Shown here piece by piece: positions 2,493-56,502 of a stretch of 64,000 nt of DNA; within the stretch, counting starts at the first letter, position 1, and each line of letters starts with the position of its first letter. The stretch is from a virus. The stretch lies in IMG/VR virus record IMGVR_UViG_3300038410_000026, positions 31,393 through 95,392 of that record, one strand, 5' to 3'. A model generated the notes under the pieces. The model made no database searches, had not been told where the DNA came from, and saw only the letters and a program-made list of their open reading frames with translations. The position numbers and the translations under genes are program-made.

Positions 2493-2612
2493 TCCCGGCA
2501 AGTCAGTGAAGAAGTCCCACCGAAATGGGTGTCCGGATTCGAACCGGAAATTTCTGATTATAAGTCAGATGCTCTACCGTTGAGCTACATGTATCTTCAC
2601 TAGTAGCCGGGA
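2493..2612 (-). ncRNA. Y RNA-like unit 1, tRNA mimic with D-, anticodon (UAU) and T-arms but no acceptor stem
   Basis: UCCCGGC-UACU-AGUGAAGA-UACAUG-UAGCUCAACGGUAGAGC-A-UCUGA CUUAUAA UCAGA-AAUU-UCCGG UUCGAAU CCGGA..CCCAU/GUGGG..UCUUCACU-GACUU-GCCGGGA. Confidence 0.85.
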
Positions 2613-38565: not shown

Positions 38566-40269
38566 ATGGGACAGAGCCAAAAATACTGGATTGACGGCCT
38601 CTCCTACGGTGGTCTCACAGGGGACGGCACTCAAACCTTCTGGAAAGACGGCAAGGCCGATCCGGATCTTTTTGGCTTTGGCTTTTCTCCTCCCTTTGAT
38701 TATATTTACTACGACAAGTTTCCCTATCGGGAAGTTGACAATTGGATACGCCAGAGGTCTTTTTACCGCAGCTTCAGCGCCGATCAGCATTTCATTCTGC
38801 CACCTCCTGGGGCTCCGCACTTCGATTACGCCTACTACGATTACTATCCCTACCGGCAGATCCGGGAGAATGCTCTGGCTGAACAGCGACTCCGCATCAG
38901 TGGGTCTTTTCAGCCTCCCAAGATCATCACGTTCCCCATCGAGTCGATCTTCCTTGATACCTATCCCTATCAGGCCGTGGAGTGGAGGCAGCGGCAGCAA
39001 AGTTTCGAGCGCAATTACATTGGATTCATCAATATATATGGCACCGACATCGGGCAATCCCTTCCGCCGCTCGATTGGCTTTATAGCATTACCAGCCAAT
39101 GGGGAGGCGAGCCGCGCACTTCCGCTATTGTGCGGAGCTATCAGTACCGCAACAAAATAGACAATGGCGGAGGTCACGGAGGCGGACATGGCGGAGGCGG
39201 CGGCGGAGGCGGTGGTGGCGGAGAGCCGGGTCGGGGGCAGGAAGAACATTTCGCCCGCGTCTACCGTCAGCACTACTGGGACAACTATCGCTACGATGCG
39301 ATCAAGTCGCTGTTCATGCGGCTGGCCGTGGAGCGGGATTGGGTCACGCCCGTCTTTGCGGATTGGGTGACGCCTCCTCCAGTGCCCAGCTTCGACTACG
39401 CTTTCTACGACGCCAACCCTTACCGGGAAGTGGCACTGAAGCAGCTTGAATCGTGGTTCAACCAGTCGCTGGTATTCAATGAGATCACTGGAGCCTACGT
39501 CATTCCAGGGGTGCCTGCCGCCGATGGCTGGCTGCCGGTTCTGACCAGCCGCGCCATTGCTTTCGATGACCGCACCGGGCAAGTTTTCCTGGCATTTCCA
39601 AACGATATCTCCGAAGGCGTCATAATCTCCTCCTGGGACCCCGGACCCACCGTTCAGGCCGACGCTAGAAGGCTGTTAAGCGATCTGCGGTGGAGAGATT
39701 CTTTCGCCGCCAGCACCCAATCTTCTTCCGTTCTGCCGGTGACGCTGCTGGTGGTCTTCCGGCCCACGATGGCGGTGTTCAGCGCCAGATTGATTAAGAC
39801 ATCCGACCTTCACCTTCTGGCAATGATGAATCCGTTTTTGCCTAATCTGAACGTTGTCACGCCACGACCACCAACCGTACCGGGAGGATATATCATCAGT
39901 CTTTGCGTAGAAGATCGCAACAGCAGGATCATTCCGGAACCGAATCCGGAGATGTGCTATCAAAATCGAGGTATCATAGCTATGCCATCAGCAATCATCA
40001 CTTGCAAGATGTTCGACAAAGATCCAAGCGCTAAAAAGGATTACTTTGTTGATTGGTCTGAACTTCTGGAAACTTCAGAATATATCTTGACAAGCTCATG
40101 GGATGGAGGAGGATTGACAATCGATAAGAACTGGTTCACGGGAGGTGTGGCCTACGCTTACGTTTATGGCGGAACCCTAGGAACCGTCTATGTCGTTGGA
40201 AATACTATTACTACATCCAAAGGCAGGACATACAAAAGGGAAATCTTAATCAACGTGGTGGCAACATAA
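38566..40269 (+). CDS. Repeat-containing tail protein with a C-terminal fibre-adaptor-like domain
   Basis: FDY..YD..PYR repeats; poly-Gly; KDPSAKKDYFVDW. Confidence 0.7.
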   Translation: MGQSQKYWIDGLSYGGLTGDGTQTFWKDGKADPDLFGFGFSPPFDYIYYDKFPYREVDNWIRQRSFYRSFSADQHFILPPPGAPHFDYAYYDYYPYRQIRENALAEQRLRISGSFQPPKIITFPIESIFLDTYPYQAVEWRQRQQSFERNYIGFINIYGTDIGQSLPPLDWLYSITSQWGGEPRTSAIVRSYQYRNKIDNGGGHGGGHGGGGGGGGGGGEPGRGQEEHFARVYRQHYWDNYRYDAIKSLFMRLAVERDWVTPVFADWVTPPPVPSFDYAFYDANPYREVALKQLESWFNQSLVFNEITGAYVIPGVPAADGWLPVLTSRAIAFDDRTGQVFLAFPNDISEGVIISSWDPGPTVQADARRLLSDLRWRDSFAASTQSSSVLPVTLLVVFRPTMAVFSARLIKTSDLHLLAMMNPFLPNLNVVTPRPPTVPGGYIISLCVEDRNSRIIPEPNPEMCYQNRGIIAMPSAIITCKMFDKDPSAKKDYFVDWSELLETSEYILTSSWDGGGLTIDKNWFTGGVAYAYVYGGTLGTVYVVGNTITTSKGRTYKREILINVVAT

Positions 40270-40611: not shown

Positions 40612-42735
40612 ATGGCCCTAGGCATCGACATTATAACTCTTCCTCCAGCCTTTGTGGGGGAACCTTTCTCGGTTCAGTTCACGACTAATTTCAACGGAGC
40701 GCCAATCCCTCAGACCGATCAGGTATGGTCAATCCTGGCAGGATCACTTCCGGATGGATTGATTCTGAACCAAACATCTGGAGAAATTTCAGGAATTCCC
40801 ACAGAGCAAGGAATTTTCCCTTTCTTACTGTTTGTCGTAAACAACAACATTGGAGACTCTGCCGGAGCAGAAGTAAACATCGCAGTCAACACGATGGGTC
40901 CGTTTCTCATCGACACGGACACATTCGGTAAGTATCAAGCCGCCACTCCTAGGGTATATGACGACAAGGTTTTCCTAGTCTGGTTTGACCAAGGTTCAGG
41001 AAACCTGAAGATTTGGAAAAGCATCGACAACGGTTATACTTTTAGCTCCATCCTTCAAGGAACTCTCCCTACTCCCGTGGTTTCTGGAACAGTTTCTGAT
41101 ACCATTCTGAATTCCACTACACTTCGCGTCGTTTGGCAGGACGTGTCGGACATGGTTCATCTGGGAGATTTTGACATGAACCTAGAGACCTGGACGCCAT
41201 TGTCAGTCGCTTTGGATCTGAGTTCTACATTTCGTCATCCGACAGGAATTTACATCGTAAACTCTCAGACGTGGGTGCAAATCGAGCAAAATCCAGCCAA
41301 TGTCTATATCTACATTTTTAACGGGTTAACGTGGGGCTCCGCCATCTTTATTGACACCAATATGCCGGTTGGTCCGCTGGGCGCGACTTCTGGCAGGAGT
41401 GCGATCACTCCCGATGGAGATTACATTTTGGTATATGGTTGGGCCACTGGAACCTTTTTCAGCCCAACATGGCATTACTACTACCGAAAACTGCATAAGG
41501 ATGGCGTTACACTCGATCCACCTGTCTGGTTTCACGACGAGAGCAATCTACCTGGGTTGGGACTGGGGAGGATCGGATTTGTAGGAGGGAAGGGAATCTT
41601 AGCGTATCGTAAGCCTACAATAGTTGATCCTTTCCTCTTCACTGGAGAATTCTTTTGGTTTAACTACACGCTTCTTGCTCCATCTTTCACGAGCGTTCCC
41701 TTGCCGACTCAACTCATCGGAGAAATCAATTGCTCTCCGATTGGCAGTGAGTTGTGGATCTACTGGATCGATATCTTCGAATTGGTTACTTATGCCTCCT
41801 TAGACCGTTTGGTTTATGTGACCTACGATGGAACGACTGTTTCCGAACCGACCGTGCTCAACGATCAGATCTTAACCCCATCGTTTCCCGATGTGCCCAC
41901 TCAATTTCTGCACGAAGTCAGCACCATGTATGTTCTTCCGAATGGCAACATCGGTTTTCAAATGGCATTGGAATACACCCCTCCAGGATCAGGAACGCAA
42001 TTGTGTGTTGGATTTTTCTGGCAGGTTGGCCCTTCGGCGGTTCCCCCACTGCCCCCTCCACCTGCCCCCAAGGCCGTCGCCTGCTTTCATGACCTAACCA
42101 AGAATCCAGCAGATGTAATCGAGGAAACCATCACTTGGTCTGGATGGCTGGCCGGAGATGCTATTTCCTCCTCTTCATGGGCTTCCGATCCAGGCATCAC
42201 GGCTACCGGGATAAACTTTACAGATAACTCATCTACAGTTCAAATATCAGGAGGTACATTCGATACGGATTACGTGGTTTCGAACACCATCGGAACGCAA
42301 TTGGGGAAAATTGAGGTGGCCAGTATTCTGGTTAAAGTGAGGCAATGTGCCTCAATCGCAGACCCTTCCTCCTGGATGACGGATGGATCAGGAACGGCGG
42401 AAGACATCAACCTGAGCGATTGCTACCACTTGATTATCAAAAATCCTGAAGACGTGCTAGATATCACCATTGACTGGAGTGACTGGCTCGAAGGAGACCG
42501 CATCTCTCGATCTGCATGGTCTCAATCTACGGGCGTCACTGTGATTGGCAGCACCCGTACCGATCTGACCACATCGGCAAGCGCCAAAATTTCAGGCGGT
42601 ATGGCAGGCAGCGAGTATTGGATAAGCTGTACTATCGAAACAGAAATGGGCAGGACAGAGGTGCGCCGCATCGTGCTAGACGTAGAAGGCTGCGCCCCTC
42701 CGCCCCAGATACCTTCGACATGGTGGAGAGACTGA
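40612..42735 (+). CDS. Ig-like + propeller + two fibre-adaptor-like domains
   Basis: GSLPDGLILN..GEISGIPT (putative Ig); WKSIDNGYTF (BNR-like); KNP.DV....I.W..WL twice. Confidence 0.75.
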   Translation: MALGIDIITLPPAFVGEPFSVQFTTNFNGAPIPQTDQVWSILAGSLPDGLILNQTSGEISGIPTEQGIFPFLLFVVNNNIGDSAGAEVNIAVNTMGPFLIDTDTFGKYQAATPRVYDDKVFLVWFDQGSGNLKIWKSIDNGYTFSSILQGTLPTPVVSGTVSDTILNSTTLRVVWQDVSDMVHLGDFDMNLETWTPLSVALDLSSTFRHPTGIYIVNSQTWVQIEQNPANVYIYIFNGLTWGSAIFIDTNMPVGPLGATSGRSAITPDGDYILVYGWATGTFFSPTWHYYYRKLHKDGVTLDPPVWFHDESNLPGLGLGRIGFVGGKGILAYRKPTIVDPFLFTGEFFWFNYTLLAPSFTSVPLPTQLIGEINCSPIGSELWIYWIDIFELVTYASLDRLVYVTYDGTTVSEPTVLNDQILTPSFPDVPTQFLHEVSTMYVLPNGNIGFQMALEYTPPGSGTQLCVGFFWQVGPSAVPPLPPPPAPKAVACFHDLTKNPADVIEETITWSGWLAGDAISSSSWASDPGITATGINFTDNSSTVQISGGTFDTDYVVSNTIGTQLGKIEVASILVKVRQCASIADPSSWMTDGSGTAEDINLSDCYHLIIKNPEDVLDITIDWSDWLEGDRISRSAWSQSTGVTVIGSTRTDLTTSASAKISGGMAGSEYWISCTIETEMGRTEVRRIVLDVEGCAPPPQIPSTWWRD

Positions 42736-43352: not shown

Positions 43353-44246
43353 ATGGGAAACGCCATGCCGGAAACCCCATCCAAAATCAGGACGTTACGT
43401 GTCCTTTCTGTCCATAACCCTATCGCGCACTGGCAGCCCGACAGCAAAGACTCCATCGATCATGCCCGAGGAATCTTCGATTCGTTCTTAAAAACGGGCC
43501 GTTATTGGGCCTCCGGTGGAGAGAACAGGTGGCTGACCAAGTTTGATCCCGAAGCTGAAGAGATCGTTCTGGTTCCCAAGATTTCAGGTGGCGGTGGACC
43601 TAGCTACGAAACTACCCAGCGCATTGGAGGGAAAGAGGAAGCCCTCGCGGGAACCGCCCAGCAAAGCATGGCGGAATTCCTCGATCTGTTCAAAGCCGAC
43701 CGGGCCAAGATGTTCGAATTGCTGGGACCTTCAGAAGACTTCTACACAGCCATGGCCTCCGGCGACAGAAAGCGTATGTTGCAGGCGGCTGGCCCAATGA
43801 TCACGGAGATCTCCAAGGGAGGAAAGGCGGCGGAAGAGAACATCATGGCTACGGCTCCGCGTGGAGCAGGCCGGGACGTCGCCTTGGGCCTGTTGCCCAT
43901 GCAGCAGGCGGGCCTAACGGCACAGGCCATGTCGCAGCCTTTCCTTTCGAGCTTCGATAAATTGGCCCAGCTTGGAGCAGGGATCGGATCTTTCGGATTG
44001 CAGGAGGCCGGAGCCGGGGCAAGCTTCGGGGGACTGGCGGCGCGTTCGCTCGAAGGAGCCGAAAAGGCATCGGCAGATGTGATGGAGGCCCAGGCGGCGA
44101 AGAAAAAGGCCACCATGGGCTTCATTGGAGATCTGGCGGGAGCGGCCATCGGAGGGCCGCTGGGGGCCGGAGTTTTCGGAAAGATATTTGGCGGAGGAGG
44201 CGGCGGAGGGTTCGGCAGCACGATTCCAGCAGACTACCGAAGCTGA
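43353..44246 (+). CDS. Putative DNA-ejection/pilot protein
   Basis: G/A/Q-rich helical body with a Gly-rich hydrophobic C-terminus; start uncertain. Confidence 0.6.
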   Translation: MGNAMPETPSKIRTLRVLSVHNPIAHWQPDSKDSIDHARGIFDSFLKTGRYWASGGENRWLTKFDPEAEEIVLVPKISGGGGPSYETTQRIGGKEEALAGTAQQSMAEFLDLFKADRAKMFELLGPSEDFYTAMASGDRKRMLQAAGPMITEISKGGKAAEENIMATAPRGAGRDVALGLLPMQQAGLTAQAMSQPFLSSFDKLAQLGAGIGSFGLQEAGAGASFGGLAARSLEGAEKASADVMEAQAAKKKATMGFIGDLAGAAIGGPLGAGVFGKIFGGGGGGGFGSTIPADYRS

Positions 44247-44253
44247 TAATTTT

Positions 44254-46986
44254 ATGGCGAACGAAGATCAAAACCTTCTTCTGCGCTACGGTCAAGCGCA
44301 GCAGGCGCAACAGCCGCAAGCAGGCCCATTCTCTCCCTATCTCAGTATCGATGCCCCAATTCAGGCATATCTGAATCCCCGCGCTCCGCAGACGAAAATG
44401 GGCGAGCGGGAGTTTTCCGGCTGGGAGTCCGGAGCCGGAATTGCGGCTGGCGTGGCCTCGAAGATTCTGTCCGGTGCTCAGACGGCGCGGATGAACAGAT
44501 TCATCAAACAGGAAGAACAGCGCCGCAATTCGATGGCGATGTATGAGAACTATGTCCGCTCCATCATGTCCGATCCGAATTATACTCAGGAAGCCAAAGA
44601 CAAGATTCGCGCCGATTTCGAAAAGACGCTGGCCGCTCAAGTCTACCAGGATTTGGACAAGATCGAGGAATTTCCGGGACAGGAAGGAAAAGGCAAGGGA
44701 AAAGGCAAGGGGAAAGGCGGAGGCAACCCGGTTGTCAACTTTATCAAGCAGATGGCAGTCAATATGACTGGTGGTGAACTGCCACACAAAGGTCCTATCG
44801 ATTTTAGATCTAAGGTGGGCGAGTATCAGAACATTCTCTACGATCCATCGGCCAACGTCAATGTAGCTGTCCAGCAGATGCAGCAGCAGTTGAATCAGAA
44901 GATCGAAGAGTATAGACGTGCGAATAATGGCATGGAGCCAGACCAGCCAACCGTGCAGCAGTTTGCCCGCGACATCGGCTACGCCAATATGTCTCGCGTG
45001 GGACGGGAAGGGGTCGGCATCTTCTACGCCGGAGCGGGCGTCGGGTATGATCCCAGGTTGCTGATGGCCGAAGAAGCCCATCGTCAGTATAGGGAAAGAG
45101 GCGAATCCGGAGCAGCCCCGCCCGCCCCTTCGGTTGCCCCCTCTGGATCTCCGACCGTGCCTACTGAAACTGGGCCTGCCCCGATAGAGGCGATGTACGG
45201 CAGGCAGATCCCCGCTAACAGACCGCTGGAGACTCCCGGCGTAAGAACCGCTCCGCCGCCGCAGGTTCCGGCTGCCGCGATGCCGGTGCCAGGAACCGTT
45301 CCGGCTGCTACGCCTGTACCCGCCGCCACAATTCCTCCGGCAATTCGCCCGGAGACTGCGGAAGAGGCTCAAAAAAAAAGTACCCGCAAGCCTTCTCCTT
45401 TTCCGGTAACTTCTGATCAACAAGGCAAAATCAGGGAGATGGTGGCGCAAGCCGCCACCAAGTACGGCCTCGATCCAAACGAGATGAAGGCTCTCGCCAG
45501 CGTCGAGAGCAATTTCCAGAACGTCTACGGCTCTGAGATCAAAGGCAAGCCGTACCGGGCCTTTGGACCCATGCAGTTAATCCCGGAAACAGCCGAGAAA
45601 ATGGGCGTAAACCGCATGGATATTGGTCAAAATATCGATGGCGGGGTACGTTACTTCAAGGAAATTCAGGACAAATTCAGCAGTCCGGAGTATCAAGACT
45701 CCGATCTGGTAAGGCAGTACGGAACCAAAGCCTTGTCTTATATGGCCTACTATGCCGGTCCCGAGAAGGTGGAGAAGATGATCCAAGACAACATCACCCC
45801 TCCGCCTTCCTACGTCGATTACGCTCAAAAGATCATGGATCGATCCGGAAGCCCTGTTCTTCTGGCTATGGCGGGCCAGACCGCTCCGCAGGCCGAAGCT
45901 GGGGAAGTGGCCTCAGACATTTACGCTGGCCCCAGAATTGGGCGGCAGGTCCAATATTACGAGGACACGAACAGGGATCGTCTTGAAAGGATTATCAAGC
46001 TTTCCAGAGCAGAGTGGGGAAAAGCCTACGGCATGGCCGTGAGCGATCCGGTCGAATTGCGCTCTCCGAGCACCAAGGAGAGAGCCTATGCTGTCAGGGT
46101 TTCGGGCGCTGCCAATCCCAAAGACAACGGCTGGTGGGATGTCAACACCGGACAGCAGATCAAGTTTCCCACGGACTGGCTGCCATCTACTCGCACTGCC
46201 GGATATATCACCAACCCGCATTGGGCCGTGGACCCGAAGAATCCGGATCGGGAGATTCATTACGGAATAGACGCTACGACTGGAACTGAAGTTATACTTC
46301 GTGATGAATCCGGAAACCCAGTCACCCGCATGAGGAATACTCCGCTCTCTACGGGCGTGATGTTTGTTCGCCGTAAAGATCACCCAGGTAAGCCGATCCC
46401 GGTCCCGAGGGGGCTAATTCATTATGATGAAAATCAAATGAGTTGGGTGATTACCAGAACCGGAGAGTCGGTGGACGTGACCACTCCCCAGGAAAACCGG
46501 GCTATAGAGACGCTTCTGGCCGGTCTTAACAAAGACTACAACAAGTCAATAGAGAAAGCCGAAAAGTGGAAAGCGGATCAACTTTCCAGATTGAAAGCGA
46601 GGGAACTGGCAGGACTGAAATCGGAAATATCCTCCGCCATGGGGCGAGCAAGCGGCGGAAAAATAAAACCGATGGGCATCTCCGACAAAACGGAAGAGAT
46701 CGAAGCCTGGATTGAACGGACCAAAGACCAGATGATAGCTCAAGCGCAGAAGTCGTGGCGGGATTCAGCGGCCAGCCACATGGTTAATGCGGGGTGGTAC
46801 AGCAATATGAAAGAAGCTCAAGATATGGCGGTCGGCATGGACCCATTTGAGGAGCATACTGACATGATTCGGAAATCCATGCCTCCCGATCCGGAAACCA
46901 AACCGTGGGGCAAGCCATACGAAACCATCGGAAAACCTAGTTCGGAAAAGTATGTTCCTCCCGAAAACCTGAAGCCGTGGGGGTGA
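44254..46986 (+). CDS. Internal virion protein with a lytic transglycosylase (SLT) domain
   Basis: AATKYGLDP...ALASVESNF, GPMQLIPETA, NIDGGVRY, AYYAG. Confidence 0.85.
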   Translation: MANEDQNLLLRYGQAQQAQQPQAGPFSPYLSIDAPIQAYLNPRAPQTKMGEREFSGWESGAGIAAGVASKILSGAQTARMNRFIKQEEQRRNSMAMYENYVRSIMSDPNYTQEAKDKIRADFEKTLAAQVYQDLDKIEEFPGQEGKGKGKGKGKGGGNPVVNFIKQMAVNMTGGELPHKGPIDFRSKVGEYQNILYDPSANVNVAVQQMQQQLNQKIEEYRRANNGMEPDQPTVQQFARDIGYANMSRVGREGVGIFYAGAGVGYDPRLLMAEEAHRQYRERGESGAAPPAPSVAPSGSPTVPTETGPAPIEAMYGRQIPANRPLETPGVRTAPPPQVPAAAMPVPGTVPAATPVPAATIPPAIRPETAEEAQKKSTRKPSPFPVTSDQQGKIREMVAQAATKYGLDPNEMKALASVESNFQNVYGSEIKGKPYRAFGPMQLIPETAEKMGVNRMDIGQNIDGGVRYFKEIQDKFSSPEYQDSDLVRQYGTKALSYMAYYAGPEKVEKMIQDNITPPPSYVDYAQKIMDRSGSPVLLAMAGQTAPQAEAGEVASDIYAGPRIGRQVQYYEDTNRDRLERIIKLSRAEWGKAYGMAVSDPVELRSPSTKERAYAVRVSGAANPKDNGWWDVNTGQQIKFPTDWLPSTRTAGYITNPHWAVDPKNPDREIHYGIDATTGTEVILRDESGNPVTRMRNTPLSTGVMFVRRKDHPGKPIPVPRGLIHYDENQMSWVITRTGESVDVTTPQENRAIETLLAGLNKDYNKSIEKAEKWKADQLSRLKARELAGLKSEISSAMGRASGGKIKPMGISDKTEEIEAWIERTKDQMIAQAQKSWRDSAASHMVNAGWYSNMKEAQDMAVGMDPFEEHTDMIRKSMPPDPETKPWGKPYETIGKPSSEKYVPPENLKPWG

Positions 46987-46990
46987 TTGA

Positions 46991-49900
46991 GTGTCCAGCC
47001 CAGGCACCTATCTGTTTGGCAGAAAACCCGAGAAGGAGGAAAAGCCGAAGCCCGACCCCTTGGTCGAGGAGGCCACCCGGAAACCGCGCCTGTCGGATAC
47101 AGGAGGCTATCTTTTTTCTCGACAGGGAAGGGGTCCCGTCACGGCTCCAGAGCGGGCCGCACGGGAGCAGGCTCCGCGCAAAACCGCCGATGCGAGCAAG
47201 TACCTGTTTTCGGACTTGGGTGCTAAAGAGAAGCCAAAAGTTGAGGCAACTACCGCAATCGCTCCAGTCGCAAGGGGAGATAGAGCGTGGTATTCCTATC
47301 TGACCACCCCGTCCTGGAAGATTGTCAGGCCGGAATCATCCAGTCTGGCGGATGTGTATGAATCCGGCATTCGAAACGTGCGAGCCGTATTGCCGAGCAG
47401 CCTGACCACGGGCACTCCGGGATGGATGGAGCGGTTCACCGAGGAATTCCTGAAGCTGGGTCCGGAGATTGCCGATTTCGTCGCATCTCCGGCTGGCTTG
47501 GGATTGCTCGCCATGCACTTTATTCCGTTCCCTCCGACCCAAATGGCAGCCCTAGGAGCCGATGTGGCCTTGGGTCTGAAATCGGCCATCGAATTCGTTC
47601 CGGAGACCGCGCAGGCTTATAAAACCGGCAAACCGGAAGATGCCGCCACGGCAATTAAGAGCTTGGTGTCCGCGTTCGGAATGCGGAGCGCGGGGAAGCT
47701 GGTTGCCAAATCCATGCACAAGGGCGGAGCACCGCTGCGGATGACTCAGGAGCAGGCGCTGGCCAGAATCCAGGAATTGTCCGAAATGCCGCTCAAGGAG
47801 AGAACGGATGCCTTCATCGGCATGGGCATTCCGCGCACCAGGATGGAGACCGCTCTCCGCTGGATTCAGACGAAAGCCGGGTTGGGGGCTTTCTCCCGTG
47901 TGGTATTCGATCTTCCCAAGCCGAGACTGCTTGAGTATGGTCAGCATTTAGTGGATGCCAGGGACGCTTTCATCAACGTGAACGATGCCCAAACCGCCAT
48001 GCTGACGAACACCATCCGCAAATTTGCCACGCCGGAGGAAAGGGTCATCGAGCGAATGGGTTACGCGATGCAGAAAAGCATCACTCCGGAGGAGGCCAGA
48101 CTGTCGGAATCCGCCAAGCAAGCCATCGAAATCAACCGCAAGGAGCAGGCCGAATTTGACAAACAGATACGGGAGGTTTACGGCGAACACGTCGGATTAC
48201 AGGACCCGGAAAGGTATCTGGCTCAGGTTTGGGATCTGTCACGGGAAGGGATGAAAAAGATCCGGGCTGTTTCGCGCAACATCGTGCGGGATAAATTCTT
48301 GCGCGAGAAACTGATCGATGACTACAAGTACGGCAAGGAGGAGGCGGGCCTCACACCGCGCTTCAACGACGTAGCCGACATCATCGAGTACCGCCGCCAG
48401 TACGCCACCCGCGCCATGGCGAACAGGATGTTTGCCGATGCGCTTAAAAAGATGGGGGCCATGGTCGATGAGCGGCAGATGCACCAGCTTCGGCTGTACT
48501 CCTACGTCCAGGCCGTCAATACGCCTGCTCTCCAAAAAGCCACCTACATCGGAAAGACCCCCAAGGGCGAACGGACGCTGATGATGCGGAATCAGTACAT
48601 TCATCCGGATATCGCTCCGGCCATAAATGCCATTTTTGGAGAGCCTTGGGGAAAAACGATTCCCGGCACTGAGTACCGAAGCCTGTTTGGAGCAGTGGAA
48701 TTGCTGCGAGCCTTCCAGAAGCAGCAGGCTGTGATGTGGTCTTTCTTCCATAACATCGCCTTGGGAGAGGTCTCGCAGGGTGTCTACGCTTCGCTCGCCA
48801 CGCGCAACCCGAAGTACATCGGGAAATGGTTCACCTCGATGTTCTTCCTGAACCCGGACTTCTATAAAGGGATCAAATCGGGAATCTACGAGACAGTGGG
48901 GCACAAGTACGGAATGAAGCGCCCTTCCGATCCTCCCTATCTGACGCGGAAACGGGAAGAGATCCTCGATCCGCTGCAACACAACATGAGCTTAAGGACC
49001 GCTGAACAGGAAACCACCGTGGTCCGCACGCTCCGGCACGCTTTTGATCGCAGCGACTCCAGGCTGGCACGGGCAGCCGGGATTCCTTTCCGTACCATTG
49101 GCAACGTGGCCTACATTTTTAATCGGGCTCTCTGGGATTACTATCTGCCAGGATCGATGCTCGATTCCTACTGGTCGATTTTGAGGCAAGAACTGGCGAA
49201 AAACATCGACCGCAGCCCCGCCGAAATTTCGCAATTGAAACGTACTATTGCGGATCACCTCAATCGCATCTATGGTGCCGAGAATCTGGAGCGGTTACTG
49301 CTGCACCCCAAAGCCAGACAGGCGATGGCGTTCCTGTTCTTCGCTCCGATCTGGACGCTTTCAAATATCCGCAACGTTACGGCTGGCTATCAGAATGAAG
49401 CCGGGGCTAGGCTGACCAACCGCTGGATTGCAGGCGCGGCCTTTTCCTGGTTTCTGACTTCACAGCTTGCCAACTACGCCCGTAGCAAGCAGTTCGATAT
49501 GCCGGATAGGGAAGGAAAAACGGGCGGTCACTGGATGTGGGATAACCCCGGCGCTCCCTTATATTTCAACGGCAAATATTATGAGGGCCTGACTGACAAT
49601 GCGGTCAACATTGCCGATGGATACAACCTGGACGGATCGGAACGTTATATCCGCTTCGGGAAAGCTTTCCGCGAACCATTCATGTGGATGCTGGAGCCAC
49701 TCAAGACTCTCGGAACAAAACTATCCATTCCGATCCAGCTAGCCATGACTACCATTACCGGACACGAGCCCGGAACTGGATTCAAAGTGATCGAAAAAGA
49801 AGCTGACCCGGCTACCCAGAGAAAACAATTCGCTGGAATGATCCTTGAATCTTTCATGCCCTTCGGGATGCAGGATGTGTACCGTAAAGGGATGCGGGCC

Positions 49901-50266
49901 ATCGCTCCCGAGACGATTCCCGAATCGAACCTTCGGCAACAATATCTCGAATTGTTCGGCACTCCGGTAATGCCGAGCGGTTTGACCGTGCGTAAAGGGC
50001 TCAGCTACACAACGGCGGTGCAATCCTACAAGGAAGCGATCCTCGAAGGACGGGAAGACAAAATGCGGGAAGTCATTGATGCCGTGGTATTTAACTACAT
50101 TAGGCACAGGGATAAAGCCGGGAATTACGACGTGGACAGGATCGTTTCGAACGTGGTGCGAGAGGCCCACAAGCAACTCCGGAAGCAGGAAGAGATAAAG
50201 TACGGGCATCCCTTCCGTTACGACGATTACGGACAACCCATCGAGCCGGGAGAAAGCGAGAGGTAA
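46991..50266 (+). CDS. Large internal virion/ejection protein
   Basis: 1091 aa, helical; N-terminal YLF repeats; synteny. Confidence 0.7.
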   Translation: MSSPGTYLFGRKPEKEEKPKPDPLVEEATRKPRLSDTGGYLFSRQGRGPVTAPERAAREQAPRKTADASKYLFSDLGAKEKPKVEATTAIAPVARGDRAWYSYLTTPSWKIVRPESSSLADVYESGIRNVRAVLPSSLTTGTPGWMERFTEEFLKLGPEIADFVASPAGLGLLAMHFIPFPPTQMAALGADVALGLKSAIEFVPETAQAYKTGKPEDAATAIKSLVSAFGMRSAGKLVAKSMHKGGAPLRMTQEQALARIQELSEMPLKERTDAFIGMGIPRTRMETALRWIQTKAGLGAFSRVVFDLPKPRLLEYGQHLVDARDAFINVNDAQTAMLTNTIRKFATPEERVIERMGYAMQKSITPEEARLSESAKQAIEINRKEQAEFDKQIREVYGEHVGLQDPERYLAQVWDLSREGMKKIRAVSRNIVRDKFLREKLIDDYKYGKEEAGLTPRFNDVADIIEYRRQYATRAMANRMFADALKKMGAMVDERQMHQLRLYSYVQAVNTPALQKATYIGKTPKGERTLMMRNQYIHPDIAPAINAIFGEPWGKTIPGTEYRSLFGAVELLRAFQKQQAVMWSFFHNIALGEVSQGVYASLATRNPKYIGKWFTSMFFLNPDFYKGIKSGIYETVGHKYGMKRPSDPPYLTRKREEILDPLQHNMSLRTAEQETTVVRTLRHAFDRSDSRLARAAGIPFRTIGNVAYIFNRALWDYYLPGSMLDSYWSILRQELAKNIDRSPAEISQLKRTIADHLNRIYGAENLERLLLHPKARQAMAFLFFAPIWTLSNIRNVTAGYQNEAGARLTNRWIAGAAFSWFLTSQLANYARSKQFDMPDREGKTGGHWMWDNPGAPLYFNGKYYEGLTDNAVNIADGYNLDGSERYIRFGKAFREPFMWMLEPLKTLGTKLSIPIQLAMTTITGHEPGTGFKVIEKEADPATQRKQFAGMILESFMPFGMQDVYRKGMRAIAPETIPESNLRQQYLELFGTPVMPSGLTVRKGLSYTTAVQSYKEAILEGREDKMREVIDAVVFNYIRHRDKAGNYDVDRIVSNVVREAHKQLRKQEEIKYGHPFRYDDYGQPIEPGESER

Positions 50267-50269
50267 AAC

Positions 50270-53200
50270 ATGGCGGATCAGCAAGCAATCCAGGTAGGCA
50301 GTTGGGAGGATCTGGCAGAAGGATATTGGAACAGACTTAGCGACAAGAAAAAAACCGATCCCTCGCTTGACGCCGCTCGCCGGTTCTTCCGTGAAAACTA
50401 TATCGATGAGGAAGGGAAACTCAAAAAGACGGCCAGCCAGGAAGAATTTGCCAGGACGATGCACGATAAGTTTCCCGAGACCTTTCCATATGAAGAGAAA
50501 GATGAAAAAGGGAATCTCGTATGGCGGCTAGACCCTAACCTTGTCAAGCAAACCGTTGAGCAGGGACCGGCTGGTCCACAGGCAGCAAAGGCAGAAAAGG
50601 CAGCAGAGGGGCCGCCCCTTCTTCGGGAAGCCTGGGAATGGACCAAGGGAAAGTTGTTTACCCCGTTCCCCAAGCAGGTTACCGGAATTTCTATCGGAGA
50701 GAGGATGGGCGAACTCAGGGAGAAAGGGTACAAAGGCTTAGAAGAATTCCAAAAGGCTTACAAGAAAAAGTACGGAAAGGAAGCTCCATCGTCCATCGAG
50801 TTGGCCAAATGGATCATGAATCTTACTCCTGGATGGGGAGTCGGGCCACAGGCCGCCGAAGAACAAATTGACATTTACACCACGCCAGCTAACATTTTGG
50901 CAATGATCCCTCCGGTGGGAGCGGCTAGGGCTTTGGCTGCGCTTCCAAAACTGGCGAGGATCGCTCCTTGGGCGATACGAGGAATAAACCTAACTACTCT
51001 GGCAGGCATCGGAGAGCAGGGGCTTAAGGATCTTGACGATGTTCTATCCAATCCCACCCAAGAGAAACTTGGTCGCCTTAGCAAAGACGTTCTCCCTATC
51101 GCTTTGATGATCTTAAGCAGGATGTGGAGTCGCCGCCTGCCAACCGCGAGAACCCAACCCCAGGAAGGTCGGCCTCCGGCTGCTGCCGGTGAGCCCGGTG
51201 CTCCTGGTGGTCCGGGTGGCCCCGGAGCAGCACCCGCGCCTACTCCCATTCGTCCGACTCCAGAAGGACCGGCTCCCCAGGCAGAGCCCATTGCGGCCAT
51301 GCCGCGCCCGTCTCCCGAAGCCGCCGCGCCTGCGGAATCTCCACAAATAGGCAAGGCCAGACAAAATGTAGCTATTGCCAGGACGGCGGTAGAGAGGCAG
51401 GCCAACGATATTCGGGCCGTAGAAGATCAGATCCAGAAGCGCGAAAGCGATCTGCTTACGGCCACCGCCGATGAAGCAACCAAAATCAACCGGGAATTGG
51501 ATGGATCAAAGGGTAAAAAAGGGCAGGTTACCAAAGAGGGCTTACGCCAAAAACGAGATCGCCTCCAGCGGCGGCTTGATGAGTTGAAGGGCAACCTTGG
51601 AAATGCCGAAGCCACTCTGACCGGCATCCAACATGCGGAAGGCTTCGGTCGCCAGCCGACCATGACGGAACAGATGGGAGCCGTAGCCGCCGCTGCCGAG
51701 CCTGCCGCTCCTGAAGCAGCGCCGCCCACCGGGCCTACGGTAATTCATTCTGGCGGAGCCGGAGCGCCGCCTCGCGCCGAAGGTCCACAGGTCGCCGCTG
51801 CTGGCGCAGCGCCTCCCGGCAAAGCGACGGTGACGCTAGAGCAGGAAGCTCCTTCTTTAATCGTACAGATGAAGGATCTTCTGGCCGAAATGGAGCGACG
51901 GGCAGCGGAGCAAAAAACGCCTACCGCCGCTGCTCCTCGGGCTGCTGAAAGACCTCCCGTTGAAGCTCCTAGGCCAGCAGCCGGAGCGCCCGAAACGGCG
52001 AAGCCCGCTGCTGCTCCAACTCGAAGAGGTGGCAGGAAGGCTGCAAAACCACCTGCTGCCCCTCCTCCGGCTGCTGCTCCTCCGGCTGCTGGAAAGCCCC
52101 TCGTGGCTGCTCCTGTTCCTGTTCAGCCTCCTCCGGCTGCTCCTCCTGCCGCTGCGGCTGCGGCTATTCCAGAGGCCAAGCAAACCGAGATCCGGAATGC
52201 CACCGGAGCATCTCCCTCCCAGCTTCAAGATTTTATGGGCATGAGGCCCGAACAGCTTCGGGAAGCATGGTATAACAACCGGCAACTAAACCGGCCAAAC
52301 ATCATGCAGGCCATCGAAATGGTGGCCGATGCTAGGGGCATACCCGTAAAAGGTAAAGCCCAAGCGGGCGCGGAAGCGCCTGGGGCCACTCCGGCTGCTG
52401 CCGCTCCGGCTGCGGCCCCAGAGCCAACCTACGCGGAGGCCATGAAGCCTATCGTGGAACGGGCCAGAAAAGCCATAACCGATCCGCAGCAAGCCGAAAG
52501 ATTCGTCAATACACTGTTTCGGATGAAGCCGGAGGATCTCACCAAGCAGTTCCAGAGCATCAATCCGGATAAGGCCATCGACCCGATTTATAGGGCGGTC
52601 TTTGCGGCACGGGGAATCCAGATTCCGCGTGGTTTGAGAGGAGGCAGGAGAGAGCAAGTTGCCGCTGCCCGCCAAGCCCAAGCACCCCTTCCGCCAGAAA
52701 AAGAGCAGGCTGCGGCTGCTGAGGAACCGGCTCCCGATCTGCCGCCCCGCTTACGCCCGGAAAGCCCCGAAGCCATGGCTGAAGTCGGATTGCCTGAGCG
52801 CTTGGCCTATGCCGATCCGCTCGCGCCAGGACAGGCGGATTTCAGGCCGCGCATCGATCTCTACGAGTCCCTGTTGAAACACAACTTTGAAGATCTGGAG
52901 AAGATGCAGGGAGAAGCCCAGGGTAATCTAAAGAACGCCATCGGGAAGGTCATGGCCGTCAAGCGGGAGGCTCAGAAGATCGTCGATTCGAGCCAATTTT
53001 CTGATGCTGGCTTGATCGAGAAATGGATGGATTGGCCGCTGACCCGGCTTCGAGATCTATTTAATAAATCCCTCGCCAAAGCGGCGGAGAAGAAACAGTC
53101 TCCCGCCGATGTGCCTGCCATCAAAGCTCTCGATAGCATCATCGGCCTGAGAGAGAAAACCATTGCCCGAGAGAGGGCTAAAGCTGGCGCGGCGGCACCC

Positions 53201-53896
53201 GCCCCTATCCCCCCGCCAGAAGCCCTGGCTGGAGCGGCAGCGGAAGCCGAAAAGCCGCCCAAGCCGAGAGTCAAAACGCCTCGCGCCAGAGCGGAGAAGC
53301 GGCAGCAGGCCAAGCGCAAGCAACCGGCCACCTATCGCACTTTGGGCGAGGAGGCCAGAAGAAGGGAAGAGGCGAACCGGGAGCAACTGGCAGCGCTGAA
53401 GCCTCCCTCGCAGGCCCAAACGCAGCGCGTTACCACCAAGGAGCCGCCCGCTGATTGGAAGTTCACCGGCAGCTACCGCAACGAGGCTGACATCTTCGAG
53501 GGCACCGGACCCGATGGCAGGCCCCGTGATTTCGCCTACGTTAAAGGCCGGTTCCCCGAAGATCCGCCCATCGAGATCAGCGCCGATAAAGAGCTTGGCC
53601 CGAACATTCAAGAGGTGATCGACGCCACCATGCGCAGGGCCATACAGCGATCCGAGGCAGAGCGGGCAAAAGAAGCTGGAATCGATTATGGCAGGATCAA
53701 AGCAGAAGAAAAGCCAACTCCAGCCGTGGAGATCAAAGCTTCCGAGGCTCCGCCTGCGGTCAGAGCGCCCGAACCCGCTCTGGAGCCGCAGCCTGAAACA
53801 GTCGAAAAGCCTCCGGCTGAAGCCGAGCGAACTCTTCAGGGACGACCGGGCGGGCGAGGGAAGCGCAGAGCAAGGAAGACCGTCCCAAAAAAGTAG
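50270..53896 (+). CDS. Large Pro/Ala-rich internal virion protein (0-frame product)
   Basis: 1208 aa; GAGGT SD; ends A_AAA_AAG_TAG. Confidence 0.8.
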   Translation: MADQQAIQVGSWEDLAEGYWNRLSDKKKTDPSLDAARRFFRENYIDEEGKLKKTASQEEFARTMHDKFPETFPYEEKDEKGNLVWRLDPNLVKQTVEQGPAGPQAAKAEKAAEGPPLLREAWEWTKGKLFTPFPKQVTGISIGERMGELREKGYKGLEEFQKAYKKKYGKEAPSSIELAKWIMNLTPGWGVGPQAAEEQIDIYTTPANILAMIPPVGAARALAALPKLARIAPWAIRGINLTTLAGIGEQGLKDLDDVLSNPTQEKLGRLSKDVLPIALMILSRMWSRRLPTARTQPQEGRPPAAAGEPGAPGGPGGPGAAPAPTPIRPTPEGPAPQAEPIAAMPRPSPEAAAPAESPQIGKARQNVAIARTAVERQANDIRAVEDQIQKRESDLLTATADEATKINRELDGSKGKKGQVTKEGLRQKRDRLQRRLDELKGNLGNAEATLTGIQHAEGFGRQPTMTEQMGAVAAAAEPAAPEAAPPTGPTVIHSGGAGAPPRAEGPQVAAAGAAPPGKATVTLEQEAPSLIVQMKDLLAEMERRAAEQKTPTAAAPRAAERPPVEAPRPAAGAPETAKPAAAPTRRGGRKAAKPPAAPPPAAAPPAAGKPLVAAPVPVQPPPAAPPAAAAAAIPEAKQTEIRNATGASPSQLQDFMGMRPEQLREAWYNNRQLNRPNIMQAIEMVADARGIPVKGKAQAGAEAPGATPAAAAPAAAPEPTYAEAMKPIVERARKAITDPQQAERFVNTLFRMKPEDLTKQFQSINPDKAIDPIYRAVFAARGIQIPRGLRGGRREQVAAARQAQAPLPPEKEQAAAAEEPAPDLPPRLRPESPEAMAEVGLPERLAYADPLAPGQADFRPRIDLYESLLKHNFEDLEKMQGEAQGNLKNAIGKVMAVKREAQKIVDSSQFSDAGLIEKWMDWPLTRLRDLFNKSLAKAAEKKQSPADVPAIKALDSIIGLREKTIARERAKAGAAAPAPIPPPEALAGAAAEAEKPPKPRVKTPRARAEKRQQAKRKQPATYRTLGEEARRREEANREQLAALKPPSQAQTQRVTTKEPPADWKFTGSYRNEADIFEGTGPDGRPRDFAYVKGRFPEDPPIEISADKELGPNIQEVIDATMRRAIQRSEAERAKEAGIDYGRIKAEEKPTPAVEIKASEAPPAVRAPEPALEPQPETVEKPPAEAERTLQGRPGGRGKRRARKTVPKK

Positions 53897-53925
53897 GGGA
53901 GCCAGAGACGGCGACTCCGGTTCCC
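53872..53925 (+). other. Candidate programmed -1 ribosomal frameshift signal
   Basis: AAGGA (53872-76), slippery A_AAA_AAG (53887-93), stop, hairpin GGGAGCC/GGTTCCC (53897-53925). Confidence 0.65.
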
Positions 53926-56502
53926 GAAGCTAAAGCGCCACCAACTGCGATCACTGCCCGACCGCCAGGACGTGAGCGCTATGTCGTCGCCCCACCCGAG
54001 AACGAAGAAGCCGCCGCCCATCTCCGTGACCTGGGGCTGAATCCCAATCAACGGCTCACCTACGTCGGGGAATACAAAGGCACTCAGAAATTCGTGGACG
54101 AATACGGTCAACTGACCCTTTTTCCGTCTACGCGCCAGGAAGAAATCTTCCGCCACTTAAAGCCCACGGCGGAACCGTTCGTCCCCGAAGGCGAGCGGTC
54201 CATCTTCAGGCCAGAACCATCCGGAACCGCAGGGCCGACGTGGTGGAAATTCGTCGATAAAAGAGAATTACTTGGACTTTACGACGCCGACCAGCGAAGC
54301 TTTCTGGGGCAAGACTTCGAGGTGGATTGGGGAGCTTGGAACAAGCTGGGAGGGGTCTCCGGGAAAGCACTCTTGAAGCAACCGGATGGCACCAAATGGA
54401 TGTTCAAGCTTCCGCTTTATGGGGAAGGCCCAGAGCCGTATGCCGAAGCATCCGGAAATTCAATTGCTAGGATGGTTGATCCTGGATCAGCAGTTGAAGT
54501 GCGCGTCATCAATTTGAACGGGAAACTAGGAACCATACAGAAATTGATTCCGCAAGCGAAGAACCTATTGGAATACGAAGACTCACCTGAATCACTTTCG
54601 AGTGATCACCCAAATGCGCTAGATTTCATCGAAGGCCATCAGCCGATTGATTTCTTGATAGGTAATACCGATGCTCACTATGGAAATTTCTTAATATTGC
54701 CAAATGATAAAGTGGTAGCGGTCGATAAGGGCTTCTCGTTCTGGGCCAGCCCACATCAGCTTCCGCCATCAGGAGCTGTCTATAGCGATCTCTGGAGTCT
54801 CATCTCCAAAGATAGGATAAATCCACACCCCGAGAACGCCGAGCGCACTGTGCGCATGATCGAGGCTCTCCCCGAGGCCGAAATCATCAAGGCCATGACC
54901 CCTTACGCCACCCGGCGCTGGCCGAACAATTCGGACATGCAGTGGGATGAGATCGAAAGGGTCTTAAACCGTAAGCGAAAGATCCGCAAGCTGATGGACG
55001 GCTTTTATGTCTTCGCTACCAATGACAGTAACTTTCGGCTGGCCAACTACGGTGGAAAGCTGCCGCTACTGCCGCCCGAAGGCGAGATGCGGATTCCAAC
55101 CGGATGGGAGGAAGCCCTGCCTCGGGAAGAGGATATATCCAGTATCGACGACCTGATGGATAACCTTCGCTTCAAATACGTACCCAAAAAAGGACCCTTC
55201 CCTCCGCTTCTCTGGGTGAATCCCTCTGGAGGGGAACTTCTGCGGCTCGCACAGGAGATATATACCGGAGAGGAAACACCGGCTTTTTACGGCATGTCGG
55301 TAGGCCCAGGGATATCTAGAACCCTGACGGACGTAGTGCCTAGTACTTTTAGGCCCAGCGCAAGGCGAAATGTGGCCAATTTCCAGCAAACGATCAGGAC
55401 AGCTTTCAGGGACGCGCTAGGAGGCGGCTTCCCAACTTTTTCGGCTGTGGTCTATCATCCCTACTTTGGATTGAGTCATCTGCGCTCCACCGCCATGCAC
55501 GAGATGGCGCACGCCTCGCTCTCGCGGGCCTATATGGCCGGAGAGGGACTGGAATCGCTTGACCCTTCCCGGATCAGGCACTGGGAAAAGGTCAAGTCCG
55601 GCCTAGGGAAGCATGGCTACGAGGTTGAGGAGCACCCGTTCGATGTTCTGACTGAGCTTATGGCTTATGGCCGTACAATGGGCCATAAGGAGTTGGGCAT
55701 AACGCCGCAGGAGATGGCCGAAGCCTACGGCGATGCCTTGGAGCACATTTATGAAACAGCAGGAGAAAAGGGCTTCGGCCCGTTCCGCTACGCGGTCCCC
55801 GAAGCCAAGCGCGTTTACCAGCAGGTTTTCAGAAGAATTCAAGAACGTCATGCAGGAGAGGGGGGACCACTTCGAGGAACTGCTGGAGGCGTTTCACCAG
55901 GGAGGGAAGCAGGCCGTGGTGGAGAAGTACTTGCGGCTCGCCGGGGTGGCCCCACCGGATACTGGGTCAGTCCCCGAGGAAAGCTCATTGAAATCCCATC
56001 CGGAAAAACCCACCCCGGAATCACCGAAGAATTTGAGCTTGCCGGAAAGCCAGCCCCCTACGTCGAACGCAACTGGGTCCGAGTCACCCAGAACCACGTC
56101 GAGCACGCCGAGAAAGCGCCGCTCACCGCTATCGCCACCGGAGTAGAGAAAGCCGTCGATTTTGCCCGCAACAGCGGCAATCGGGCGGTCTACGTCGAGG
56201 TGGTCCGCAAGGGCAAGCCCACCCCGGCTTCTGGCTATTATTGGGTGGATGATCTCATCGACGCTAACTTTAACCCCAAGAAAGCGACGAAGGCTCCCTT
56301 TGATCCATCCCTGATGGGCGGGGAGCGTGCTATCGTTCCGCCCAAGAAAGCTCTCGGCAAGCCTGCCCCTGAGCCGAAGCCTACTCGACCCGCGTTCCAT
56401 CCCGAGAGCCGCAGAGAAATATTGGGTCTTAGCAGGAAAGAAGAAACACCAGTCGAAGAAGAAATCGCGGCCATGCCGCCGCGTCCTAGGGAGGTAAAAT
56501 AA
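53893..56502 (+). CDS. -1 frame extension: HipA/PI3K-PI4K-like kinase + HExxH metallopeptidase-like module
   Basis: LGGVSG, WMFK, PYAE, DFLIGNTDAHYGNFLI, VAVDKG; AMHEMAH...ELMAY. Frame open from 53821; first start codon is GTG 54094 with no SD. Confidence 0.75.
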   Translation, partial: VGEPETATPVPEAKAPPTAITARPPGRERYVVAPPENEEAAAHLRDLGLNPNQRLTYVGEYKGTQKFVDEYGQLTLFPSTRQEEIFRHLKPTAEPFVPEGERSIFRPEPSGTAGPTWWKFVDKRELLGLYDADQRSFLGQDFEVDWGAWNKLGGVSGKALLKQPDGTKWMFKLPLYGEGPEPYAEASGNSIARMVDPGSAVEVRVINLNGKLGTIQKLIPQAKNLLEYEDSPESLSSDHPNALDFIEGHQPIDFLIGNTDAHYGNFLILPNDKVVAVDKGFSFWASPHQLPPSGAVYSDLWSLISKDRINPHPENAERTVRMIEALPEAEIIKAMTPYATRRWPNNSDMQWDEIERVLNRKRKIRKLMDGFYVFATNDSNFRLANYGGKLPLLPPEGEMRIPTGWEEALPREEDISSIDDLMDNLRFKYVPKKGPFPPLLWVNPSGGELLRLAQEIYTGEETPAFYGMSVGPGISRTLTDVVPSTFRPSARRNVANFQQTIRTAFRDALGGGFPTFSAVVYHPYFGLSHLRSTAMHEMAHASLSRAYMAGEGLESLDPSRIRHWEKVKSGLGKHGYEVEEHPFDVLTELMAYGRTMGHKELGITPQEMAEAYGDALEHIYETAGEKGFGPFRYAVPEAKRVYQQVFRRIQERHAGEGGPLRGTAGGVSPGREAGRGGEVLAARRGGPTGYWVSPRGKLIEIPSGKTHPGITEEFELAGKPAPYVERNWVRVTQNHVEHAEKAPLTAIATGVEKAVDFARNSGNRAVYVEVVRKGKPTPASGYYWVDDLIDANFNPKKATKAPFDPSLMGGERAIVPPKKALGKPAPEPKPTRPAFHPESRREILGLSRKEETPVEEEIAAMPPRPREVK

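Follow-up and report, generated by a model that had tools for sequence, protein, structure and literature searches.

A candidate programmed -1 ribosomal frameshift that would append a kinase-bearing module to a presumed ejection protein of a short-tailed phage

The stretch of DNA analysed here (hereafter the window) consists of 64,000 nucleotides (nt), read on one strand, and corresponds to bases 31393-95392 of the 95,392-bp virus record IMGVR_UViG_3300038410_000026 of IMG/VR, which originates from a wetland metagenome. On its + strand, a 1208-residue open reading frame (ORF) ends in CCA AAA AAG TAG, and the -1 frame, already open upstream of this end, continues for 869 codons beyond it. A sequence-only reading of the locus had proposed that the two parts are joined by a -1 shift of the dnaX type, and the features on which it relied (the end CCA_AAA_AAG_TAG, the upstream AAGGA, the downstream hairpin, the open -1 frame and the GTG at 54094) were all found to be present. 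The interpretation considered below, a programmed -1 ribosomal frameshift at the 3' end of the 1208-residue gene yielding a 2077-residue fusion, is partly supported by the analysis and is given a probability of about 0.5. The features of the candidate shift site are as follows.

53821-53892, + strand: overlap window, in which the -1 frame is open after the TGA at 53818-53820 and the zero frame is still read
53872-53876, + strand: AAGGA resembling a Shine-Dalgarno (SD) sequence, 10 nt 5' of A_AAA_AAG and 7 nt 5' of C_CCA_AAA
53884-53890, + strand: first slippery heptamer, C_CCA_AAA, in the shift-prone phase, 6 nt 5' of the hairpin
53887-53893, + strand: second slippery heptamer, A_AAA_AAG, in the shift-prone phase, 3 nt 5' of the hairpin
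53887-53892, + strand: A6 run within CCA AAA AAG TAG, the zero-frame end of the 1208-residue ORF
53894-53896, + strand: zero-frame stop TAG, directly 3' of A_AAA_AAG
53897-53925, + strand: hairpin of 7 + 3 bp, in which GGGAGCC (53897-53903) pairs with GGTTCCC (53919-53925) and three inner pairs are added
53893-56502, + strand: continuation in the -1 frame, 869 codons plus stop (56500-56502)

The site reads ...AAGGAAGACCGTCCCAAAAAAGTAGGGGAGCC... and its slippery run, C3A6G (53884-53893), holds two overlapping heptamers from either of which the same protein would be produced. The arithmetic of the sequence-only reading holds, since 1208 + 869 residues give a shift product of 2077, with TVPKK followed by VGEPE at the junction, and the -1 frame between 53821 and 56502 contains no ATG, GTG or TTG until the GTG at 54094. 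In the 10,799 codons of 12 long ORFs, A_AAA_AAG occurs in the shift-prone phase only once, at this very place, and this sole copy falls within the 25-codon window where a shift would be productive; in-phase heptamers of any X_XXY_YYZ type number 29 in the same codons, and the -1 frames behind the other strong ones are open for 12-72 codons only, compared with 869 here. The hairpin has a folding energy of -16.1 kcal/mol (z = -2.48), which was equalled by 3 of 200 shuffles and is reached by 1.2% of 37-nt windows in the coding DNA of this genome. The joint background of hairpin and SD-like element is roughly 0.2%, a figure that is less strict given the post hoc choice of the elements. With regard to spacing, the usual distance from heptamer to structure is 5-9 nt (PMC5009743). 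The short spacer conceded by the sequence-only reading is thus real for A_AAA_AAG (3 nt) and does not apply to C_CCA_AAA, so that this caveat is eased by the presence of an overlapping heptamer which sits 6 nt from the hairpin and leads to the same product.

Other slippage-like motifs were noted in the neighbourhood of the site. The A9 run at 45371-45379, in a gene with an SLT transglycosylase domain, contains an in-phase A_AAA_AAA behind which the -1 frame closes after only 12 codons; transcriptional or ribosomal slippage might produce a truncated form from this run, or it may be nothing. A G_GGA_AAG of the lambda G/GT type lies in phase at 50647-50653, near the start of the 1208-residue gene, with 72 open codons in its -1 frame. 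A minus-strand terminator made of the hairpin 53898-53918, CCTAC and T6 (53887-53892) was rejected because it would lie within an operon of the + strand and because a gap of 3 nt precedes its T run; this terminator-like flag is probably a coincidence of the A6 run.

Downstream of the site, the -1 frame encodes the following features.

53893-53979, + strand: linker rich in proline, alanine, glutamate and threonine (P/A/E/T), residues 1-29 of the -1 part, similar in type to those linking the domains of the 1208-residue protein
53983-54156, + strand: small alpha/beta SH3-like domain predicted by AlphaFold, residues ~31-88 of the -1 part
54094-54096, + strand: GTG, the only canonical start for an independent 802-residue protein, with an SD duplex of -3.2 kcal/mol
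54310-55077, + strand: predicted PI3K/PI4K/HipA-like kinase domain, residues ~140-395
54349, 54397, 54670 and 54724, + strand: kinase motifs GGVSG, WMFK, DAHYGN and DKG, respectively
55498-55512, + strand: HEMAH, residues 536-540, zincin-type HExxH motif, a putative assignment made from the motif only

Of particular relevance is the stretch 53896-54093, which precedes the first canonical start codon of the -1 frame. With a codon-usage model trained on ten long ORFs, its log-likelihood in the -1 frame is 0.068, the averages being 0.13 for coding and -0.28 for off-frame sequence; a score of 0.068 is reached by only 3% of off-frame windows, and the two remaining frames of the same stretch score -0.12 and -0.44. 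A stretch of 66 codons would lack a stop with a probability of 0.11 and one of 91 codons with a probability of 0.047, and no real gene in the window has a longer start-less stretch than these 91 codons. The peptide encoded in the -1 frame of 53896-54093 includes, for example, VGEPETATPVPEAK, and the proline/alanine (P/A)-rich segment straddles the shift site. The small domain was modelled with a predicted local distance difference test (pLDDT) score of 66-79 within a long AlphaFold model and of 68.8 when residues 25-96 were folded alone, and shows a weak SH3-like match to FeoA and to the C-terminal domain of DtxR (template-modelling score 0.5, E 0.065). The GTG at 54094 corresponds to residue 68, within the third strand of this predicted domain, and therefore an independent start at this codon would cut the domain. 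The HMMER envelopes of two homologues of the downstream part (P0089 and P0124) apparently reached into the start-less stretch and were discarded, as no real similarity was found there by BLASTP. Codon usage, the linker, the small domain and the poor quality of the GTG suggest that 53896-54093 is translated in the -1 frame.

The 869 residues that would be added by the shift are laid out as a P/A-rich linker, the small SH3-like domain, a disordered linker, the kinase domain, the HExxH region and a C-terminal part. The effector-type character ascribed to this part by the sequence-only reading agrees with the PI3K/HipA-like kinase fold and the HEMAH motif. The kinase domain was predicted by AlphaFold with a pLDDT above 90 over residues 140-395 and was matched by Foldseek, with a probability of 1.00, to VPS34, PI3K-gamma, PI4KII-alpha and the Helicobacter pylori kinase CtkA; the model has a bilobal kinase fold with the strand 3 lysine, the DxHxxN catalytic loop and the metal-binding aspartate of DxG. 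In an alignment of 30 sequences, K172, D260 and D278 are invariant and H262 is nearly so. HMMER, run in full against 1.84 billion representatives, retrieved 288 proteins, and all 149 listed matches besides the query's own protein cover residues ~150-385 only, at 25-43% identity. The matched proteins are mostly 700-4800 residues long, and 119 of the 149 listed have the domain 279 or more residues away from their N-terminus; one homologue carries a Phage_Mu_F head domain and several give weak Pfam matches to HipA_C or PI3_PI4_kinase. The domain itself scores 12.9 bits against PF00454, below the gathering cut-off of 27.1 bits, which is passed only by the homologue P0009. Consequently, the kinase domain is, as modelled, a divergent PI3K/HipA-like fold in which the catalytic residues are intact, and by sequence score it does not belong to either Pfam family. 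With the 869-residue part as query, tblastn against phage records matched only a hypothetical protein of a mycobacteriophage, with 26% identity across the kinase domain.

Beyond the kinase domain, residues 400-869 gave no match in Pfam, NCBIfam, PHROG or PDB sequence searches, and the window positions 55093-56499, which encode the C-terminal 469 residues from the HEMAH region onward, had no sequence match anywhere. An Atlas language-model lead pointed to clusters carrying LPD23 and ART-PolyVal, two domains of polyvalent proteins, with scores of 0.86-0.87, below the reliability line of 0.9. Kinase and zincin-like peptidase domains recur in phage polyvalent proteins, which are encoded among virion genes and have been proposed to be packaged, injected and processed by their peptidase (PMC5512222).

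The record from which the window is taken is linear, with a completeness of 94% as estimated by CheckV, and its structural operon lies on the + strand from ~9.8 kb of the window. The genes that place the locus within this operon are the following.

12949-14817, + strand: P22/SU10-like portal, in the structural operon
38566-40269 and 40612-42735, + strand: two genes with podophage GP4 fibre-tail adaptor (Gp77) domains
44125-46986, + strand: gene with an SLT transglycosylase domain, 953 residues, first of a block of large genes
46991-50266, + strand: gene of 1091 residues, in the same block
50270-53896, + strand: zero-frame gene of 1208 residues, last but one coding unit of this block, which follows the tail genes
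ending at 56502, + strand: the -1 frame ORF, which closes the block

Past 56502, the genes switch to the - strand, with a DnaB helicase and others. The 1208-residue gene stands two genes past the gene with the SLT domain and after the Gp77 adaptor-domain genes, and by position the block of large genes is presumed to encode the internal (ejection) proteins of a short-tailed phage, to which the 1208-residue protein is assigned by synteny alone. This protein is made of small domains with P/A-rich linkers between them. It gave no family match or homologue in Pfam, PHROG, NCBIfam and PDB sequence searches, among which none to a known podophage ejection protein, nor any hit by tblastn against phage records, and a hydropathy scan showed no clear membrane helix. 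Elsewhere in the operon, the Gp77 domain forms the end of each of the two adjoining genes 38566-40269 and 40612-42735, the latter having additionally a He_PIG Ig-like domain; these genes may encode two fibre or adaptor proteins that serve as alternatives. The 2064-residue ORF at 32369-38563, located between tail and adaptor genes, matched nothing in Pfam. ARAGORN detected a tRNA-Ile (anticodon TAT) at window positions 2522-2595 on the - strand. At the junction of the 1091- and 1208-residue genes, a minor 112-nt contig of sample X1 (50053-50164) carries three single-nucleotide polymorphisms (50083 C>A, 50108 A>C and 50134 G>A), and the population hence holds some strain variation.

Relatives in which the heptamer and the frame offset could be compared were sought at several levels, by searches that may leave out the phage's own or nearly identical records. 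Scans of IMG/VR with the 869-residue part, the C-terminal half of the 1208-residue protein, the 1091-residue protein and its distant match P0158 yielded no relatives, nor did a metagenome scan with the 869-residue part. The DNA pattern of the junction, with a variable C/A run, found none in metagenome or viral contigs; word-index protein searches were blank or returned the query's own protein only; and none of the RNA runs listed contained the stretch. The 1084-residue cluster mate of the 1091-residue protein (P0007) is 99.9% identical to it and was of no use for comparison, and the alignment of kinase homologues was too divergent for a locus scan.

The observations that weigh against a programmed frameshift come in part from the site itself and in part from its rival explanations, and both are set out here together. 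In longer folding windows the hairpin is not exceptional (z = -0.3 to -0.9), and the duplex of AAGGA with the anti-SD sequence (-5.4 kcal/mol) is matched by 15% of background positions and is hence common. A_AAA_AAG is also much less slippery in hosts with a tRNA-Lys of anticodon CUU; the small domain was modelled from a single sequence with moderate confidence; and relatives of the phage or of either ORF were found in none of the collections searched. To these are added the features that favour two separate genes, the first ending at TAG 53896 and the second encoding an 802-residue kinase/zincin protein from the GTG at 54094. Exactly this protein was called by the gene callers of two sources, its kinase domain (from residue ~140 of 869) would be left intact, and 30 of the 149 listed homologues have the kinase domain near the N-terminus. 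The GTG is nevertheless a poor start, as the sequence-only reading had held: its SD duplex is at background level, 44% of random positions being as good, as compared with a median of -6.05 kcal/mol for 22 reference gene starts (the first start of each long ORF, some of which may be misplaced), even if about one third of these reference starts are likewise weak. Gaps of 300-700 nt between longer ORFs are present elsewhere in the operon, and some of them may hold small genes, but the gap considered here is coding-like in exactly the -1 frame and encodes a linker followed by the first three strands and a helix of the predicted small domain that the GTG would cut. Its + strand shows no promoter-like or terminator-like site, its non-canonical starts (ATC 53950, CTG 54031 and CTG 54037) were dismissed as they have no SD at all, and coupling by termination and reinitiation was set aside because the next start lies 197 nt from the upstream stop. 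The chance of an open stretch of 66-91 codons, 5-11%, is not negligible; set against it is the fall of the only in-phase A_AAA_AAG of 10,799 codons into the 25-codon productive window. Overall, two independent genes are regarded as unlikely.

A further explanation is that the locus is one 2077-residue gene whose A7 run has lost a base or was misread. In that case the stop would be an error or a recent mutation that went to fixation in this population, and any slipping would be unprogrammed leakage. The loss of a single A from CCA AAA AAA GTA gives the observed CCA AAA AAG TAG, and therefore the heptamer, its phase and the adjacent stop are not independent of this explanation, since all three are created together. 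Homopolymers are also hot spots for such events in general. The run was A6 throughout in the contigs that cover it: Logan contigs of two runs, from different samples and studies, span 53887-53896 with 0 differences and 0 gaps, that of the second sample being 3362 nt long (50596-53957); the exact 1208-residue sequence is common to JGI/IMG and Logan; and a 553-residue fragment on a third contig (JGI, 24,114 bp) ends at the same TVPKK, the same stop being thus shared by three assemblies. Longer runs in neighbouring genes, A9 (45371-45379) and A7 (50348-50354), are in frame and were correctly assembled there. A random assembly error is consequently unlikely, which eases one half of the single-base caveat raised by the sequence-only reading, while the other half stands in that a real deletion of one A would look alike. 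The contigs have a depth of ~8-10, at which a minor A7 population could be hidden, both samples are 2020 wetland metagenomes possibly collected in one campaign, and the copies, nearly identical with 0 differences across 8 kb, represent one population. Compensatory low-level frameshifting at such indels is known (PMC5009743). A deletion would nonetheless account neither for a rare hairpin placed at a suitable distance nor for the SD-like element, the 869 downstream codons are fully intact, and this explanation is considered quite unlikely. Transcriptional slippage, by which RNA polymerase would add one A to A6 so that part of the mRNAs carry A7, would give an identical junction (PKKVGE) and the same 2077-residue product, and bacteria and mobile elements make use of slippage on A/T runs to express genes (PMC5009743). 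Hairpin and SD-like element, however, belong to ribosomal and not to transcriptional recoding. Productive runs moreover usually count ~7-9 or more bases, for which A6 is short, and this explanation appears very improbable. The recoding fusion is retained as the best reading because the hairpin and the SD-like element go beyond what a deletion creates and because there are signs that the gap is translated.

Shifting itself, the ratio of the two forms and the packaging, delivery and processing of the longer one are inferred from these features and would proceed as follows. Ribosomes would reach C3A6G (53884-53893), where a fraction would slip back by one base with their tRNAs on CCA-AAA or AAA-AAG, probably helped by pairing of AAGGA with 16S rRNA, by the UAG next for the A site and by the hairpin. 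Ribosomes that do not slip would terminate and release the 1208-residue protein, and those that slip would make the 2077-residue one. If the 1208-residue protein is, as its position suggests, an internal (ejection) protein of a podophage, the longer form might bring the enzyme module, in a few copies, into the capsid and from there into the host, where the zincin-like part may release the modules by cleavage, in line with the proposal made for polyvalent proteins.

Should the shift be true, the present annotation would be wrong, an 802-residue orphan gene having been called in place of a 2077-residue fusion, and the copy number of an injected enzyme would be set by translation alone, through a compact cassette of ~75 nt which holds two overlapping heptamers, an adjacent stop, an SD-like element and a hairpin. 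It would also link frameshift-extended virion proteins with polyvalent and MuF-effector fusions, which belong to two separate literatures. Should the shift not be real, the locus would be an ordinary gene pair or a broken gene, of which only the kinase/zincin protein would be of interest. A more tentative and rather doubtful extension is that short-tailed phages use a terminal -1 frameshift generally for equipping an ejection protein with large enzyme modules in a low and fixed copy number; in that event a kinase and a self-processing protease would ride in with the DNA, leaving the stoichiometry of the ejection machinery undisturbed, by a so far undescribed delivery strategy missed by gene callers.

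The closest resemblance of the site is to Escherichia coli dnaX and to orfA-orfB of the IS3 family of insertion sequences (IS), in which A_AAA_AAG is likewise preceded by an SD-like element at ~10 nt and followed by a stem-loop. In IS elements, too, zero-frame stops occur close to the site of the shift. The two cases differ from the present one in that here the spacer is 3 nt from A_AAA_AAG, the usual 6 nt being found only from C_CCA_AAA, and in that the present site is known from sequence alone; furthermore, the dnaX shift truncates the protein whereas the shift here would extend it by 869 residues. Heptamer, SD-like element and stem-loop are the three elements studied in dnaX (PMC5389563).

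Among virion proteins, a terminal shift giving a minor, C-terminally extended form next to a major short one is found in capsid proteins 10A/10B of T7/T3 and in Lactobacillus phage A2 and the Listeria phages A118, A500 and PSA (PMC5009743). What is added there to the capsid or tail proteins is either short or an Ig-like decoration domain, unlike the 869-residue extension considered here, which is of enzyme type, larger than most whole proteins and attached to a presumed ejection protein; a review of ejection proteins makes no mention of frameshifting (PMC8954989). With polyvalent proteins and MuF-effector fusions, on the other hand, the predicted fusion shares a very large multidomain organization, a setting among virion genes, a kinase domain, a putative zincin-like domain and linkers (PMC5512222), and homologues of its kinase sit inside giant proteins, one of them with Phage_Mu_F. 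The kinase clade of polyvalent proteins is of a truncated Ser/Thr/Tyr type (PMC5512222), whereas the kinase here has a predicted PI3K/HipA-like fold. Taken together, the main difference lies in the mode of attachment: polyvalent proteins are single continuous ORFs, whereas here the effector half is encoded in another frame and would be attached in a fraction of the molecules.

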